Notes: generated by a model from the sequence alone, not told the origin. 64,000 bases of DNA from an uncultured Candidatus Saccharibacteria bacterium (GCA_964469405.1 CAYXYP010000004.1:7717-71716), one strand, 5' to 3'; shown: positions 18,207 to 58,519, counted from the stretch's first letter. Numbers and translations: made by a program.

Positions 18207-19559
18207 ATGGACAGTGCTGCGAAGATGACTATAATGAATTTTGTGGTAACGCTCTCTCGCACATTTTCAGTAACACTCGCAAGTATTTTTATTTTCAGCA
18301 TAGTTTTGTTTGGTGGGGCGGGGAACTCTCTCGCACAAACCACTTCCACCTCACAGCCGGGTGTCGTCCTTCTCGCAACGGTAAACGTCGTCGATGTAAA
18401 GATCATCTCTCAGGAGGGTAGTACGTTCCGTATTTCTTTCAATCTCACAAATCGTCAAGGTATACAGACAGGAGTTAAATATGGCGTTCGGCTCGTATCG
18501 AACGTTAAAGGGGCAGCTATCGCCGACGAAAAAGTATATCCAGCGACACTGACACTTGCGGAGAACAGCTCTGTGATCAAAGAAATCACCTACACAGCCC
18601 CAGAAAACTTAAGTGGCGCCTACACGCTCTACATCACCAGCAGAAATGAAAGTGGTCTCCCTCTTGCCCTTACTCCAGCTGGCAAGGTTACTCTCACTGC
18701 AACTACAAAAGGTCTTGCGGTCGATCCCACCTCCTGTTATTTGAAGATCGTAGGTGAAAAAGGCAGCCCTCACTACAATCTCGTTCAAGGTGTCGATATT
18801 GCAAGTACTGAAAATCTAGTGCTGACCTGCACAGCGACTAATGGAGAGTCGACAGCGCTTTCCGCAGTACCGTCTTTCGAAACTCACTATCGCACCATAT
18901 ATGGAGCCATAGTTAAGCAAGTCGGAGGAGATTCGACACCGATTTCTTTTGCTGCAGGTGAGAAAAAGACTTTTTCCATCACACTTCCTAAGGCGGGAGA
19001 ACCTCAAGCATATGACGTCTCGACCGTGCTCAAGTCGGGGAGTATTTCATCAAACGCCATCATTGCTCACTACGTGATCAGCGGATCAAGTGCGACCGTG
19101 CAAAGTATTTCTCTCGACAAGAATTTCTATATGAAAGGTGATACCGCAACACTGTCTTTCGCATGGTCGCCATCAGCTGATGACTTCCCTAACTCACGCA
19201 TCGGGGAAAGCTCCCTCTCTGTTACGAGCGCTAGTGTGTCTATGACCGATGCGAGTGGAAACGCCTGTATAACGCCGACTCAAAAGTCTCTGTCAGGGGG
19301 TGTCAAAATAAACATCGCGCTCCTTCTCGAGAAGGACTGCAATAATCCTCATGTATCCCTGTCGCTCGTAGACGCAGCAGGGCACCCTCTCGCTCAGAAG
19401 GATCTAGCTATTATCAGTCCTGCGACAGCTCCTGAGGCGACATCGTCGACATCATCTCCTGTCTCTGTGCTCATTGCTCTTGGCGTCATTGTGATTATTG
19501 GATTGGGAGCATACATCATGCACCGGAAGAAAGAAGTCGTAATACAACAACTACCATGA
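18207..19559 (+). CDS. cell-surface protein with N-terminal signal/anchor and C-terminal TM anchor, hypothetical
   Basis: The 450-aa ORF starts with a hydrophobic N-terminus. The C-terminus is SVLIALGVIVIIGLGAYIMHRKKE, a TM helix plus a basic tail. The body is Ser/Thr-rich and beta-rich. Confidence 0.55.
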   Translation: MDSAAKMTIMNFVVTLSRTFSVTLASIFIFSIVLFGGAGNSLAQTTSTSQPGVVLLATVNVVDVKIISQEGSTFRISFNLTNRQGIQTGVKYGVRLVSNVKGAAIADEKVYPATLTLAENSSVIKEITYTAPENLSGAYTLYITSRNESGLPLALTPAGKVTLTATTKGLAVDPTSCYLKIVGEKGSPHYNLVQGVDIASTENLVLTCTATNGESTALSAVPSFETHYRTIYGAIVKQVGGDSTPISFAAGEKKTFSITLPKAGEPQAYDVSTVLKSGSISSNAIIAHYVISGSSATVQSISLDKNFYMKGDTATLSFAWSPSADDFPNSRIGESSLSVTSASVSMTDASGNACITPTQKSLSGGVKINIALLLEKDCNNPHVSLSLVDAAGHPLAQKDLAIISPATAPEATSSTSSPVSVLIALGVIVIIGLGAYIMHRKKEVVIQQLP

Positions 19560-21046
19560 GTAACACCACCTCAAGGACGTTTCTCTCTCTGGCTATTTTT
19601 GTTGCAGCGACAGGTTTTGTGATGCCTCAACAAGCGAAGGCGGATACTTTTATAGTGAGCGGATGGGACGGACCGCTTTTTACTTCCTTCACCTTCAATG
19701 TTGGTCTAGATAAATCTGTATACAAACCGGGTGAAAGAGTAATTGCGACTGCAGAGTCTTTATATTTGTCATGCTCTAATTACAATTTCGCAACGATAAA
19801 GGCGACTATTAGTGGAGCAACACAGACGGTACTCAACATATATGGCGTCAGTGGATCTATGAATTTTACTGCACAAAGTACTTCAGGAAATTATTTTGCT
19901 GTCTTTACCGGGACTGCCGTACGCGAGAGAGATCGTCGAACTTTGATTAGTGCGGACGCAGCACTTACAACACCACTCGTAGCAACAATGAGTATTCCAT
20001 ACACTGTGTCGGCTGTTACCGGAGGCACCACCGGCGGTACTAATACCGGAGGCCCTATCCCAGGCGGTACTAATACCGGAGGTTCTACGGTAGGAGGTAA
20101 TGTTGCGGGAGGTGCCATCACAGGAACTACTATCACCGGCGGTACCATCACAGGAACTACTATCACGGGAGGTACTAATGGAGTAGGTACCATTACCGGC
20201 GGCACAATTACGACGGGTCCTAACACAGGACGTACCATCACCGGGGCTACCATCACCGGAGGTACTATTACAGGCGGCACCATTACGGGGGGCACGGTCA
20301 CGGGAGGTACGGTATCAGGAGGCACGGTCACGGGAGGTACGGTATCAGGTGGCACGGTCACGGGAGGTGTGATTTCGACTGGAGGCACCACCGGCGGTAC
20401 TAATACCGGAGGCCCTATCCCAGGCGGTACTAATACCGGAGGTTCTACGGTAGGAGGTAATGTTGCGGGAGGTGCCATCACAGGAACTACTATCACCGGC
20501 GGTACCATCACAGGAACTACTATCACGGGAGGTACTAATGGAGTAGGTACCATTACCGGCGGCACAATTACGACGGGTCCTAACACAGGACGTACCATCA
20601 CCGGGGCTACCATCACCGGAGGTACTATTACAGGCGGCACCATTACGGGGGGCACGGTCACGGGAGGTACGGTATCAGGAGGCACGGTCACGGGAGGTAC
20701 GGTATCAGGTGGCACGGTCACGGGAGGTGTGATTTCAGGTGGTCTCCCTACTCCTACTCCAACTCCTCCTCCAACAGTTTCTATCAGCGCTACACCTAAT
20801 CGTGTCATTGCTGGCAATGAAACCACAGTGTCGTGGAATGCTTCTAATGTGACCTCCTGTAGCGTCACAAAAAATGGCGCACCGTGGCAGACGGTTCTCT
20901 CAGATCCTAATACCAGAACGCAATTTAAATCCTTTGTAGAGACTATCAATGTTCAGACCACATATGTTGTTACTTGTGCCAATGGTGCCAGTCAGAATGT
21001 AGCGTCAGCAATCGTAAACGTCACCTCTGTCTTCCAAGGATTTTAA
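19556..21046 (+). CDS. secreted repeat protein: signal peptide, long GGT(I/V)TG-type glycine/threonine repeat region, PT linker, C-terminal Ig-like domain
   Basis: The signal peptide is MSNTTSRTFLSLAIFVAATGFVMPQQAKA. About 240 aa consist of GGTxTG-like repeats. TPTPTPPPT precedes a C-terminal beta domain. The gene overlaps the upstream gene by 4 nt. Confidence 0.7.
   Translation: MSNTTSRTFLSLAIFVAATGFVMPQQAKADTFIVSGWDGPLFTSFTFNVGLDKSVYKPGERVIATAESLYLSCSNYNFATIKATISGATQTVLNIYGVSGSMNFTAQSTSGNYFAVFTGTAVRERDRRTLISADAALTTPLVATMSIPYTVSAVTGGTTGGTNTGGPIPGGTNTGGSTVGGNVAGGAITGTTITGGTITGTTITGGTNGVGTITGGTITTGPNTGRTITGATITGGTITGGTITGGTVTGGTVSGGTVTGGTVSGGTVTGGVISTGGTTGGTNTGGPIPGGTNTGGSTVGGNVAGGAITGTTITGGTITGTTITGGTNGVGTITGGTITTGPNTGRTITGATITGGTITGGTITGGTVTGGTVSGGTVTGGTVSGGTVTGGVISGGLPTPTPTPPPTVSISATPNRVIAGNETTVSWNASNVTSCSVTKNGAPWQTVLSDPNTRTQFKSFVETINVQTTYVVTCANGASQNVASAIVNVTSVFQGF
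20021..20736 (+). repeat. perfect tandem duplication, 2 x 360-bp period (about 356 bp identical), in frame (120 codons each) inside the repeat-protein gene
   Basis: Lines 20021-20376 and 20381-20736 are identical base for base. Each copy also contains a doubled 30-bp sub-unit ggcacggtcacgggaggtacggtatcagg(a/t). Confidence 0.9.
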
Positions 21047-21497: not shown

Positions 21498-22436
21498 ATG
21501 GAATATTTGCCTGAATTTAAAAAGAACTTTGCAACCGCGTATCTCGCGGAGGAGTATGAACGTCTCGATAAAGAGGCTGCTGAGGCACTTGGAGCCGCAG
21601 GAGGGGATGCCGAGCTTATGCGAATGGCGAAGGAAGACGAGTCGCGCGTCCGCGCGCGACAGGCGGGCATTCTCACCGAAATAGAGCAAATCCTTGCGAA
21701 AGAAAAAGAAGAAGTCGCTCGACCGAGTTCGGTCGTGATGGAGCTACGCGCTGCTGCGGGTGGGGACGAAGCGACCATCTTCGCCACCGATCTAAAAGAA
21801 ATGTATCAAAAATATGCTGAACGTCGTGGATGGAAGACGCGCGTTGTCGATGATCTCACTATTGAGATCATAGGTGCTGATGCGTACGATGCTCTGCGCT
21901 TCGAAACTGGCGTACATCGAGTCCAGAGGGTGCCACTCACTGAGAAGTCGGGGCGTATTCATACCTCCACCGCCTCAATAGCTGTATTGCCTATCCGCTT
22001 AAAATCGAAGGTAGATATCAATCCAGCCGATATCCAGATGGAATTTTCGAGAAGTGGCGGAGCAGGAGGACAGAATGTGAACAAGGTCGAGACGGCTGTT
22101 CGGCTCGTCCATATACCTACCGGAATTGATGTACGCTCTTCTTCCGAGAGAAGTCAGTTGGCGAATCGCGAAAAGGCGATGCAAATTCTATCCGCGAAGC
22201 TTGAACAATTGCATGAAGAACAGGAAGCGAAGAAACATGCGGCAGAGCGTAAAGAACAGATAGGTACGGGCGATCGTTCGGAAAAGATTCGCACGTATAA
22301 CTACCTGCAAGATCGTGTTACCGACCATCGGCTGAAGGAATCCTGGCACAATCTGCCGAAGATCCTCGCGGGAGGCATAGATGACATTATCGATGCATTA
22401 CACGCGGCAACCACCTCGCCAACCCATTCCGGCTAA
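21498..22436 (+). CDS. prfA: peptide chain release factor 1
   Basis: It has the GGQ motif [11 protein letters not shown]. The codon-recognition tripeptide is PLT ([14 protein letters not shown]), which is the RF1 P-x-T type. The ORF is 312 aa. Confidence 0.85.
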
Positions 22437-37625: not shown

Positions 37626-37800
37626 TCAGTGATGCAGTAATTTCATCTGAACGGGATTGGATTGTCTGAATGGGATGTGTTTGGTAGTGTGTCAATACCG
37701 AGTCGGGCGAATCGCCGTAGTAAGCGTTCCTTGCACGCTTTCCCTCGGCTCGCTCGGAGTACATACGTATACGAAGACGTACACATATGTCTCCTCACTC

Positions 37801-37871
37801 GCCGGTGTAGTTCAATGGTAGAACGAAGGACTCATAAGCCTTAGACAGTGGTTCGATTCCACTCATCGGCA
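37801..37871 (+). tRNA. tRNA-Met (anticodon CAT); elongator type, or tRNA-Ile2 if lysidinylated
   Basis: The cloverleaf is acceptor GCCGGTG/CATCGGC (one G-U), D arm GTTC-AATGGTA-GAAC, anticodon loop CTCATAA, and T arm AGTGG-TTCGATT-CCACT. The 1:72 base pair is G-C, so it is not an initiator. The 3' CCA is not encoded. Confidence 0.8.
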
Positions 37872-38097
37872 CACACGACATTTTGGGAAAATTTTGGTAG
37901 GATGGGAAAACGAGCGCTTGCTGAGATAGTCAGGCTTACAGTAGTAAGCCTGAGACAGGCTTCTCACGCGGCGCTCGGAGAAAATACAAGCTCGCTTGTA
38001 TTTTACTCCTCGCTTGCGGGAGCAAGCTTAAGAGAGCATGCTCCCGGCGCGTTCGCTCACATAAGAAAATCTGATACTTTTCTTAGTTTCCTCACTT

Positions 38098-38171
38098 GCG
38101 GGAGTAGCTCAACTGGTTAGAGCGCCGCCCTGTCACGGCGGAGGTTGCGGGTTCAAGTCCCGTCTCTCGCG
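38098..38171 (+). tRNA. tRNA-Asp (anticodon GTC)
   Basis: The cloverleaf is acceptor GCGGGAG/CTCTCGC, anticodon stem-loop CCGCC-CTGTCAC-GGCGG, and T arm GCGGG-TTCAAGT-CCCGT. Confidence 0.85.
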
Positions 38172-38215
38172 CAGAATAGAAAAGCCGGCGAAAGCCGGCC
38201 TTTTCTTTATTCTGC
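38171..38215 (+). terminator. composite intrinsic terminator after tRNA-Asp
   Basis: An inner stem gccggc-gaaa-gccggc is followed by cttttctt. An outer stem pairs gcagaata with tattctgc. Confidence 0.65.
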
Positions 38216-38367
38216 TGACGAGAGACGGGACTTGAACAGCTCGGCTATGTTTTGCTAGCGAGCAAAACCGCCGAGCCAGGGCCGAGCGGAGTGAGGAGCG
38301 TCGGCGACGAATGAGCGCTTGGCCAAGCCCGTCTCTCGTTCAAAAATGCATAACTAAAATATAAAAA

Positions 38368-39366: not shown

Positions 39367-40086
39367 TTAGTGTGAGTGTAAACCGTAGCCTAATTGTGAC
39401 GCATGCGCAGAATGGTTCCGATGGATAAGTTCGTCGTTACGAATGAGCTCAAACAGCTCGTATTCATTTCGAACATTTCTTCCATAGAATGCAAGGAAGT
39501 CGGAGGTGACGGGAGTCTGTTTCAGGTGCTCGCCTTCGTTCTCAAGAAATTGTGAGTATTGCTCATACGCATGCGACTCAAAGAGGTAATTGAGGTCGAG
39601 TGCCGCTCGTCGGGAAACGAGGAAGAGGATATATACCGTCCAGAAATAGAAGAATGAGAAGAGAAACGGGATGAACGTATGACGAATGAAGCTTTGGCAG
39701 CGGAGGCGTTGCACAATCTGCGAAAGGACGACGACGTGCATCGTTTCATTGTCCTGAGCCATTCGACTGAACGCATTTAGCTTTGTAAGCTCGATGGCCC
39801 GGTGCTCATTCGAATAGAGCGCAGTTAGGATGGTGTACGCCGCGATTTCCCATGATTGGTAGGGGATTCGGGCGATAACCTCTATCGCTTTGAACTTAGC
39901 ATAGGACGGTGTGCGACCATAGATAAAAGTGCCTGAATGTACAAGAAGCGATCCGAGTAGTCGTGATATGAGCAACGGACGGTAGTGGTCAAAGGGCGCC
40001 GCATATTCAGCCCGGAGAGCAGAATCATTAAGCGACCGAGCAAGTTCTTCACTGATTGTAAATTCGTCGTTCATTTTTCCGAGCAT
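39367..40086 (-). CDS. di-iron carboxylate protein of alternative-oxidase (AOX/PTOX) type
   Basis: IEVIARIPY, NEHRAIE, LFESHAYEQY and IRNDELIHRNHS parallel the four AOX iron-binding helices (LETVA, NERMHL, LEEEAIHSY, RADEAHHRDVNH). There is a central hydrophobic membrane-dipping segment. Confidence 0.5.
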   Translation of the reverse strand: MLGKMNDEFTISEELARSLNDSALRAEYAAPFDHYRPLLISRLLGSLLVHSGTFIYGRTPSYAKFKAIEVIARIPYQSWEIAAYTILTALYSNEHRAIELTKLNAFSRMAQDNETMHVVVLSQIVQRLRCQSFIRHTFIPFLFSFFYFWTVYILFLVSRRAALDLNYLFESHAYEQYSQFLENEGEHLKQTPVTSDFLAFYGRNVRNEYELFELIRNDELIHRNHSAHASQLGYGLHSH

Positions 40087-57455: not shown

Positions 57456-58019
57456 TTAGTTTTCTATGAACGAAATTGAAGTAGGGGGAACGAAGATTTT
57501 TGCATCCATTGTCCACGGACTGCAAGAGAAGGAAAGATCTGTAGCAAGATCTACTCCACCCCTGCTCGCTATCACACTGCCGCTCACACTTGAAGACGCA
57601 GGAAGTTTGATTCCCGTGGCCGCACTTGTTGTCCACGCATAGAGATAGTTACTATCATCTATCATCGTCGAATTAGTAAAGTTGGCACGTGCCATCCCTG
57701 CCACAACATACAATGTTCCCGAACGCATGACACCGCTCGCAGTTTTAATTGAGCAGACCAAAGGTTGTCTCAGATTGAGAAGATATGAGAGCGAACCGAT
57801 TCCGACGGTATTTACAGTGGTTTTCGTCGGCTTGGCTGCTGTATATGAAGATGTCTTGGTCGTCGTTTTTTCCGGTACAGTTGCCGATGGTGTGGTCGTC
57901 GCACTTGGTCCCCTTGTATCCTCACTCTCTATCTTTAATGTGAGATATGCTACACCGCCGACCAAAACTAGTACTATAATTACCCCCAAAATCGTGTTGG
58001 TATTCATTAGGAATAGCAT
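57456..58019 (-). CDS. hypothetical membrane-anchored exported protein
   Basis: The start is taken at MLFLMNTNTILGVIIVLVLV (complement of 58017-58019). The longer ORF-track version runs into tRNA-derived sequence. The body is Thr-rich. Confidence 0.45.
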   Translation of the reverse strand: MLFLMNTNTILGVIIVLVLVGGVAYLTLKIESEDTRGPSATTTPSATVPEKTTTKTSSYTAAKPTKTTVNTVGIGSLSYLLNLRQPLVCSIKTASGVMRSGTLYVVAGMARANFTNSTMIDDSNYLYAWTTSAATGIKLPASSSVSGSVIASRGGVDLATDLSFSCSPWTMDAKIFVPPTSISFIEN

Positions 58020-58186
58020 AGCATCGAAAGAACAAGTTACGCGGGTTGCGGACTCTATATTTCGGCTGCCAGACTTGGATTCGCCTCTCGCCGTGCTCGG
58101 CTCGAAACCTACGACGTCTCTTCGACGCCTGCGGCCCGCGGTTCGAATCCAAGTCTGTGTGCGCAAAAACTGCTACGCACTTTTTG

Positions 58187-58257
58187 CTGCCAGACTTGGA
58201 TTCGAACCAAGATACTCAGATTCAGAGTCTGAGGTCCTACCATTAGACGATCTGGCA
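58187..58257 (-). tRNA. tRNA-Gln (anticodon CTG)
   Basis: The minus-strand sequence is TGCCAGA-TC-GTCT-AATGGTA-GGAC-C-TCAGA-CTCTGAA-TCTGA-GTAT-CTTGG-TTCGAAT-CCAAG-TCTGGCA-G. All stems are perfect. Confidence 0.8.
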
Positions 58258-58519
58258 TAACTGTACCTTATTGCCAGACGTTAATGGGAGGACGTTGTCC
58301 TACTGCAAGCGAAGCAAGGCAAAGAAGGAATGTCTGCATTCATTCTTTCCGAGCGAGCGTAGCAGAAAGCCCGAAGGGCTTACCATTAGACGATCTGGCA
58401 ATAGTACGACACAGGAGTGTCGTACTATCTAGACGATACGTTATCAAGCAGGTTTGTTCAATACATAGAATTGCGGCAGATGTTTAGTAGAAAAAAGGTT
58501 GAGCATGTAGGATTGTCTG

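Follow-up and report, generated by a model that had tools for sequence, protein, structure and literature searches.

The 178-bp repeats of the tyrT locus of Escherichia coli have been known since the late 1970s to early 1980s and correspond to the RtT RNA family of Rfam (RF00391; gene rttR). In E. coli K-12 the tyrT–tyrV region follows the order tRNA gene, spacer, arm complementary to the tRNA end, core and 19-nt copy of the tRNA 3′ end, one such unit lying between the two genes and three after tyrV. All four units score 133–137 bits with RF00391, their ends read AATCCTTCCCCCACCACCA, and rttR is annotated on the strand of the tRNA. The RF00391 consensus itself starts with the complement of the 3′ end of tRNA-Tyr and ends with the 19-nt copy, the two being paired as the outer stem. 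In Actinobacillus two RNAs of the RtT family adjoining tRNA-Asn and tRNA-Lys genes, and described as lying upstream of them, were detected on Northern blots (PMC4986893), and release of RtT from tRNA operon transcripts has been described for E. coli (Bosl and Kersten 1991, as cited in PMC4986893). Within Rfam, RtT has so far been an enterobacterial curiosity of unknown function.

Two further systems are relevant for the comparison. Small RNAs are known to arise from the 3′ external transcribed spacers of tRNA transcripts, for example the 3′ETS of leuZ in E. coli. A direct repeat extending from the T-loop to the tRNA 3′ end is, moreover, the classic identity block of the attachment sites which tyrosine integrases use in tRNA genes.

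The DNA analysed here is a stretch of 64,000 nucleotides (referred to as the window) from an uncultured Candidatus Saccharibacteria bacterium (CAYXYP010000004.1:7717–71716). It carries on its minus strand an intact tRNA-Gln(CTG) gene without encoded CCA, which ARAGORN places at 58186–58257 and Rfam (RF00005, 62.1 bits) at 58187–58257, the latter being also the interval given in an initial annotation of this DNA. Three partial copies of the gene that had been described there, all read here on the strand of the tRNA, were recovered as exact matches. The first is an inverted copy of tRNA positions 50–67 (18 nt, 58140–58157), covering the last two nucleotides of the 5′ strand of the T-stem, the T-loop, the 3′ strand of the T-stem and four nucleotides of the acceptor. 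The second, a direct copy of positions 54–72 from the T-loop to the 3′ end (58065–58083), is two nucleotides longer than had been reported, 19 nt as against 17 (58067–58083), with 22 of 24 nucleotides matching over 58060–58083. On the other side of the gene positions 1–20 are repeated in direct orientation (20 nt, 58381–58400; 24/26 over 58375–58400). The whole 64-kb window holds no other match to tRNA-Gln of more than 10 nt, so that chance is excluded as the source of these copies.

Between the gene and the inverted copy lies a spacer of 28 nt (58158–58185, minus strand; spacer L), which forms an imperfect hairpin, GCAAAAAGTGC / GCAGTTTTTGC. This hairpin had been taken for terminator-like. 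That reading is not supported: a terminator scan of 58158–58187 found no intrinsic terminator on either strand, and it is only when the plus strand is read, not the strand of tRNA-Gln, that the GTGCG/CGCAC stem is followed by the T-run. The suspicion that the tRNA fragments had led to an over-extended neighbouring reading frame proved justified, as the public gene calls start this gene at 58007 (183 aa) and not with the 236-aa frame running to 58166.

On the 5′ side of the gene, again on the minus strand, a native leader of 14 nt (58258–58271, as read from the sequence) is followed by an arm that had escaped the initial annotation, an imperfect inverted copy of tRNA positions 1–24 (58272–58293; TGCCAGA-CGTTAATGGGAGGAC on the plus strand). 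In the predicted fold it pairs with the direct copy at 58381–58400. The interval between the two (58294–58380, core X1) is predicted to fold, on the tRNA-sense strand, into three hairpins, one of them capped by a cUUCGg tetraloop (fold z = −5.3), and resembles nothing else in the 64-kb window. Given the inverted 5′-end copy, the two flanks of tRNA-Gln are mirror images: with increasing distance from the gene, each shows a short spacer, then the inverted copy, the structured core and finally the direct copy. A perfect 12-bp hairpin with a 4-nt loop (ATAGTACGACAC / GTGTCGTACTAT, 58401–58428) abuts the distal 5′ copy, and a few leader nucleotides beside it resemble the native tRNA-Gln leader.

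Read on the tRNA-sense strand, the 3′ unit thus comprises an anti-3′ arm of 18 nt, a core of 56 nt (58084–58139) and the 3′ copy of 19 nt. The inverted copy provides the 5′ strand and the direct copy the 3′ strand of a 14-bp closing helix (58144–58157 with 58070–58083) around a two-hairpin junction (z = −4.8). Within the core, the first hairpin (H1) has six base pairs and a GAAGA loop, and the second (H2) contains tandem G·A and two U·G pairs. The Asp 3′ unit described below and the Gln 5′ unit fold likewise (z = −6.9 and −5.3), giving a range of −4.8 to −6.9 for the units. A trailer-pairing structure, one of two explanations offered in the initial annotation, is partly right: the inverted copy does pair with the distal direct copy and closes a multi-hairpin fold, the core hairpins of which covary (see below).

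The same order of elements had been noted at a second, independent tRNA, and this holds. The tRNA-Asp(GTC) gene (38098–38172, plus strand; ARAGORN and Rfam) is followed on its own strand by a terminator hairpin (38173–38217) roughly centred between the arms (palindrome test, p = 0.005), an exact inverted copy of its 3′ part (19 nt, 38219–38237), a 90-nt core with two long hairpins (38238–38327, z = −6.9) and a direct copy of its 3′ end (38328–38339, 11 nt exact). The A at 38218, just before the anti-3′ arm, pairs with the final T (38339) of the direct copy, where the tRNA has C; this A–T pair is, to judge from the sequence, a compensatory departure from the tRNA inside the closing helix. Upstream of tRNA-Asp there is a further module (38007–38046, plus strand), recognised by its repeats and its fold, which begins with a copy of the tRNA-Asp leader and of positions 1–7 (38007–38022) and continues with a hairpin whose 3′ strand holds the anti-5′ motif CTCCCG. 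In a BLAST comparison the four flanking units and the flanks of tRNA-Met shared no sequence within the window, and hence the units are not copies of one repeat.

The tRNA-Met (tRNA-fMet) and both tRNA-Thr genes of the window lack such flanking copies. Downstream of tRNA-fMet (37930–37958) there is a 14-nt stretch repeating part of the anticodon arm (13/14 matches to 37835–37848), which sits in a small hairpin (37930–37953).

A relative of the window organism from the same aquifer (contig L139) allows the tRNA-Asp locus to be compared directly. Its spacer, arms and flanks are homologous to those of the window and the upstream module is conserved, and in place of the 90-nt core of the window it carries the core type found at tRNA-Gln. 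The same contig has a 76-nt 5′ unit upstream of tRNA-fMet (L139:560–640), missing from the window (37770–37800), in which a copy of the leader and of tRNA positions 1–10 is followed by a short hairpin with the complement CACCGG. Since the upstream copies at tRNA-Asp and tRNA-Met read TCCTCGCT and the native leaders TCCTCACT, these 5′ units seem to be homologous to each other.

How do these modules compare with RtT? As in RtT they lie immediately downstream of the tRNA and on its strand (minus for Gln, plus for Asp), they follow the order tRNA, spacer, arm complementary to T-arm and acceptor, GC-rich multi-hairpin core and direct 3′ copy of about 19 nt, and the two arms form a closing helix, whose distal strand at tRNA-Gln is a 19-nt exact copy of the tRNA. 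RtT units occur singly, between tRNA genes or in tandem; the window has one unit and not an array. The differences concern the core, which is unrelated in sequence and stays below the 45-bit gathering threshold of RF00391, the host, which is an uncultured groundwater bacterium and not an enterobacterium, and the 3′ copy, which lacks CCA because the tRNA genes of the window do not encode it. Furthermore the window has a 5′ mirror-image module, and none was seen in E. coli. RF00391 gave no match in the window units, neither at the gathering threshold over the whole window nor at E values up to 10 in the Gln region and up to 5 in the Asp region, so that the link to RtT rests on architecture and not on demonstrated homology. 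Apart from the tRNAs, Rfam searches of the window and of both tRNA regions returned only chance hairpin matches to microRNA families. A gammaproteobacterial tRNA-Ser locus (L116), by comparison, has units scoring 52.5 and 42.2 bits with RF00391 (gathering cut-off 45). Judged by their layout, the modules of the window are of the same kind as RtT and represent a different variant. The initial annotation had not recognised the architecture of this known RNA family. The 3′ETS-derived RNAs offer a looser parallel: a functional RNA could likewise arise here from the trailer of a tRNA transcript by means of tRNA-processing enzymes, but those spacers contain no inverted or direct copies of tRNA ends and are not repeated at many tRNAs.

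The 56-nt core at tRNA-Gln is almost identical to a spacer adjoining tRNA-Lys in an unrelated genome bin (L059). Both have the same length and share identical blocks of 23 and 15 nt, and the hairpin GGCGTC/GACGTC of the Gln core is matched by GGTGCC/GGCACC in the other. A search pattern consisting of the conserved core blocks, which are thereby invariant by construction while the hairpins are left free, found 19 more metagenome loci, several of them from the same Hainich wells. From the pattern scan and a model of this core family (model R1) we find that a core of 56–59 nt follows at least 13 tRNA species in groundwater metagenomes, namely tRNA-Gln(ctg), Gln(ttg), Lys(ctt), Lys(ttt), Tyr, Trp, Arg(gcg), Arg(ccg), Asp, Glu, Gly, Asn and Ser. 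On the window the model scores 99.5 bits at 58077–58151 on the minus strand, its sole match there; the Asp unit and the 5′ units are of core types other than R1. At one further Hainich contig where the R1 module follows tRNA-Gln(ttg) (L145), a copy of the tRNA 5′ part lies about 300 nt upstream of the gene (L145:1990–2030) and is split by 14 nt in the D-loop region.

At the R1 loci the core remains constant and both arms match the adjacent tRNA in every case. The left junction comes after the complement of G52–T55, the right one at T-loop position 56. In the hairpins 94.7% of the cells are paired, and double-sided changes were counted in 44 cells as against 13.6 in shuffled alignments (none of 500 shuffles reached the observed value) and 2–7 in slid controls. 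All 18 sequences have the wobble pair U45·G70, and 13 of the 18 have U46·G69; the opposite strand would have A·C mismatches at these places. The covariation of the hairpins together with G·U pairs possible on the tRNA-sense strand only shows that the structure is selected on that strand, which points to an RNA. In L059 the module is flanked by tRNA-Lys and, downstream, by a second tRNA of the same orientation and must therefore be transcribed through, unless the downstream tRNA has a promoter of its own. Another contig (L137) has the module immediately ahead of a tRNA-Leu gene in the same orientation and is cut off before any tRNA on the 5′ side.

Contigs with an identical neighbouring gene were found in several Hainich samples; the source of the host DNA is Hainich groundwater filtered at 0.1–0.2 µm. 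One of these, from a co-occurring strain (L006), lacks exactly 58084–58204, a unit of 121 nt, and joins the 3′ end of tRNA-Gln to the far flank. The unit is bounded by two direct repeats, the 3′ copy at 58065–58083 and the stretch 58186–58204 within tRNA-Gln itself. Thus the absence of the segment from a related strain, which had been put forward as a check, was indeed observed. Four contigs of independent metagenome assemblies (L002, L003, L005 and L007) end at the edges of the 19-nt direct repeat (58186 and 58205 of the window), and one scaffold (L001) joins both alleles of tRNA-Gln. Since assemblies break exactly at the repeat edges, these modules fragment assemblies at tRNA genes where both alleles coexist. 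A second pair of alleles was found at orthologous tRNA-Trp genes of related metagenome contigs (L131 and L133), one empty and one filled, the homologous flanks resuming right after the distal copy. In the empty alleles at both tRNA-Gln and tRNA-Trp spacer L is missing as well. Owing to the direct repeats, a unit starting with spacer L cannot be told apart from a unit starting with the anti-3′ arm in either pair. Tandem arrays, as in E. coli, are present at three further loci (L047, L093 and L116); the direct repeats account simply for the loss of units as well as for their tandem expansion. In addition, units are gained at new tRNAs and cores are exchanged.

The layout is not confined to the groundwater organisms. 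We scanned one genome per species for GGTTCGAATCC followed, after a gap of 35–65 nt, by its reverse complement; all counts that follow refer to the matches listed. Of 122 matches listed, 104 consist of one tRNA with an inverted partial copy, i.e., at least 104 tRNAs have an inverted T-arm copy downstream, and five are convergent tRNA pairs. The median exact inverted repeat measures 15 nt. At 52 of the 104 listed loci the tRNA 3′ end recurs in direct orientation, over at least 14 nt, within 400 nt downstream, compared with 7 in the upstream control, and several of the listed loci have tandem units. The hosts among the matches listed belong to the Bacillota, Pseudomonadota, Bacteroidota, Spirochaetota, Verrucomicrobiota, Planctomycetota, Actinomycetota, Patescibacteria, Halobacteria and Thermoplasmatota, among others. 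The recurrence surmised from two tRNAs of the window extends to the 13 or more tRNA species with an R1 core and to more than a hundred tRNAs across phyla. Many loci have a strong terminator between the tRNA and the module, so that co-transcription may need read-through, and many have a second, different terminator after the distal copy.

At three loci with tRNA-Ser the Rfam family sX4 (RF02223, a Xanthomonas sRNA) gave matches of 38–44 bits, below its cut-off of 70, which span the tRNA and the anti-3′ arm (L016:3883–4051, L047:1316–1442 and L076:4304–4441). Possibly the described sX4 is itself an RtT-like module.

In the literature accessible to us, with limited access to subscription journals, RtT is mentioned only briefly and we found no paper on a wide distribution. 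Within the same limits the breadth of the architecture, a conserved core combined with arms that vary with the tRNA, and the mirror-image modules on the 5′ side appear not to have been described before.

From these observations we consider it fairly probable (roughly 60%) that the module is co-transcribed with its tRNA, closes through a helix mimicking the tRNA end and is released as a small RNA. The 3′ module would be a unit of 90–130 nt on the strand of the tRNA, made up of a complementary arm, a conserved core with two or three hairpins and a repeat, in direct orientation, of roughly the last 19 nt of the tRNA. It would be transcribed together with the tRNA, either by read-through or within a tRNA operon, and the anti-3′ arm would then pair with the distal copy and close the core as a compact junction. 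The terminal helix would mimic the acceptor and T-stem of a tRNA and end at a tRNA-like 3′ terminus, and the enzymes that mature tRNA ends would cut the module out as a discrete and stable small RNA, as reported for RtT in E. coli. The tRNA 3′ end and its copy would serve as direct repeats through which recombination or slippage removes the unit or amplifies it in tandem, and one core family would have spread to many tRNA species with the arms matching the local tRNA each time. The anatomy, the structured strand, the conserved and covarying core, the match of the arms to the local tRNA, the presence or absence between strains and the RtT layout are observations, whereas transcription and processing in the window organism, a role of the released RNA and the copying of the arms are inferred.

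Two considerations complicate this picture. RNase P and RNase Z recognise shape, and a mimic needs no exact identity over 18–20 nt; a mechanism which copies the arms must therefore also exist. In addition, the predicted minimum-energy fold of a read-through transcript pairs the anti-3′ arm with the 3′ part of the real tRNA and not with the distal copy, while the 5′ half of the tRNA pairs with the distal copy, and the predicted whole resembles a tRNA with a large insertion in the T-loop. As the anti-3′ arm takes up the 3′ part of the real tRNA in this thermodynamic prediction, the module could interfere with the folding of the tRNA.

We also entertain, tentatively, the wider notion that RtT-like modules are small non-autonomous mobile elements of structured RNA present across prokaryotes. 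A lineage-specific core would travel between tRNAs and its closing helix would be rebuilt at each site by copying the local tRNA end in inverted and direct orientation, at the 3′ side and sometimes at the 5′ side. Such target-templated insertion would be unlike any transposon, integron cassette or integrative element described, and the tyrT repeats would be explained at the same time.

That the locus reflects a mobile or integrative element directed at tRNA 3′ ends was the other proposal of the initial annotation, and it stands in part. In its most specific form, a miniature non-autonomous integrative element consisting of a replacement 3′ end, spacer L, anti-3′ arm and core would have inserted into the T-loop by site-specific recombination, with a recombinase supplied in trans, and the displaced 3′ end would now be the distal copy, as with phages and islands that target tRNAs. 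We think this unlikely. The direct repeat, which spans the tRNA from its T-loop to its 3′ end, does correspond to the identity block of such attachment sites, and gain or loss is precise at the repeats, both at tRNA-Gln and in the tRNA-Trp pair. As both empty alleles lack spacer L, they fit an inserted element with its own replacement 3′ end equally well. The second terminator after the distal copy looks at many loci as if it had been brought along. Moreover, the order of the module matches the succession site, loop, inverted site, cargo, site that is left by folded single-strand attachment sites, e.g., those of CTX phage. However, no cognate integrase was detected among the called genes and Pfam-scanned proteins of the 64-kb window, where gene tables (52–64, 21–57 and 2–12 kb) and a Pfam scan of eight further proteins contained neither an integrase nor a transposase nor a reverse transcriptase, and none of these lies beside E. 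coli tyrT. The unit measures only 121 nt, members with a common core differ in having non-homologous spacers L, and the same core carries arms for different tRNAs, which a fixed attachment site would not do. Furthermore covariation and strand-specific G·U pairs indicate an RNA and not sites for proteins on duplex DNA. The R1 core was not found in 2.9 million viral contigs, in which the generic T-loop inverted-repeat pattern is rare as well (six matches), and we reject a phage origin on these grounds.

The more familiar tyrosine-integrase duplications of phages and genomic islands share with the window the direct repeat flanking an insert and the presence or absence in different strains, but the insert in the window is about 100 nt long, contains no gene, carries an inverted copy and RNA-type covariation, and has no integrase nearby. 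The finding at tRNA-Gln is real, and it is no ordinary integration scar, a reading which explains neither the inverted arm nor the covariation. Miniature inverted-repeat elements (MITEs) and REP/BIME hairpin repeats are likewise small, non-coding, intergenic hairpin units that vary between strains. The "terminal inverted repeats" of the unit, in contrast to those of MITEs, are not the element's own and change with the neighbouring tRNA, and there is no direct target-site duplication outside the arms. R1 is present once in 64 kb, unlike a MITE with its many copies per genome, and the four units of the window share no sequence.

A by-product of replication or repair without any function seems improbable to us. 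According to this explanation, template switching at a quasi-palindrome, the terminator hairpin, makes the inverted copy; the direct copy is then added by further switching at the T-loop, which is nearly palindromic (TTCGAA). The sequence from the tRNA 3′ end through spacer L to the anti-3′ arm does form one long hairpin at Gln as well as at Asp, imperfect in its inner and perfect in its outer part, in 32 of 61 loci the arms enclose an interval that is a centred palindrome (p ≤ 0.01), and the core junctions always fall inside sequence derived from the T-loop. Template switching leaves unexplained, however, why a core of 56 nt is conserved across loci and genomes with compensatory changes and why cores are lineage-specific; the Gln interval is not significantly palindromic (p = 0.5), and at one locus (L029) the anti-3′ arm is offset from the terminator by 6–7 extra nucleotides. 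Fold-back at the terminator hairpin may thus be the source of the arms, not of the module.

Finally, we consider it very improbable that the copies stem from a former convergent tRNA (gene or pseudogene) or were created by misassembly at a repeat: five of the 122 listed pattern matches are true tail-to-tail tRNA pairs and several contigs do break at the repeats, but the inverted copy spans only 18–19 nt next to a core without any tRNA match by ARAGORN or Rfam, the same sequence recurs in independent assemblies, in different wells and in Logan assemblies, the exact repeat of 19 nt is probably too short to collapse at the usual smallest k (21), and finished genomes including that of E. coli K-12 have the same layout. 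Inspection by eye gave no support for a hidden tRNA-like gene on the opposite strand or for a hammerhead-type ribozyme.

The same architecture with lineage-specific, covarying cores after tRNA genes of many phyla of bacteria and archaea, one core family adjoining at least 13 different tRNAs with matching arms, and the turnover of units between co-occurring strains make RtT more than the oddity of one species and raise a general question. The question has two testable parts, the role of the released RNA and the process that copies the tRNA end in both orientations. In practical terms the units cause metagenome assemblies to break at tRNA genes, lead to over-long ORF calls and can pass for integration scars in the mapping of genomic islands.

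Elsewhere in the window, two adjacent open reading frames of 450 and 496 aa (18207–21046) are without a Pfam match. The window also encodes, at 39367–40086 and 21498–22436, a homologue of the alternative oxidase (AOX) and at least two release-factor genes of the PCRF/RF-1 type.
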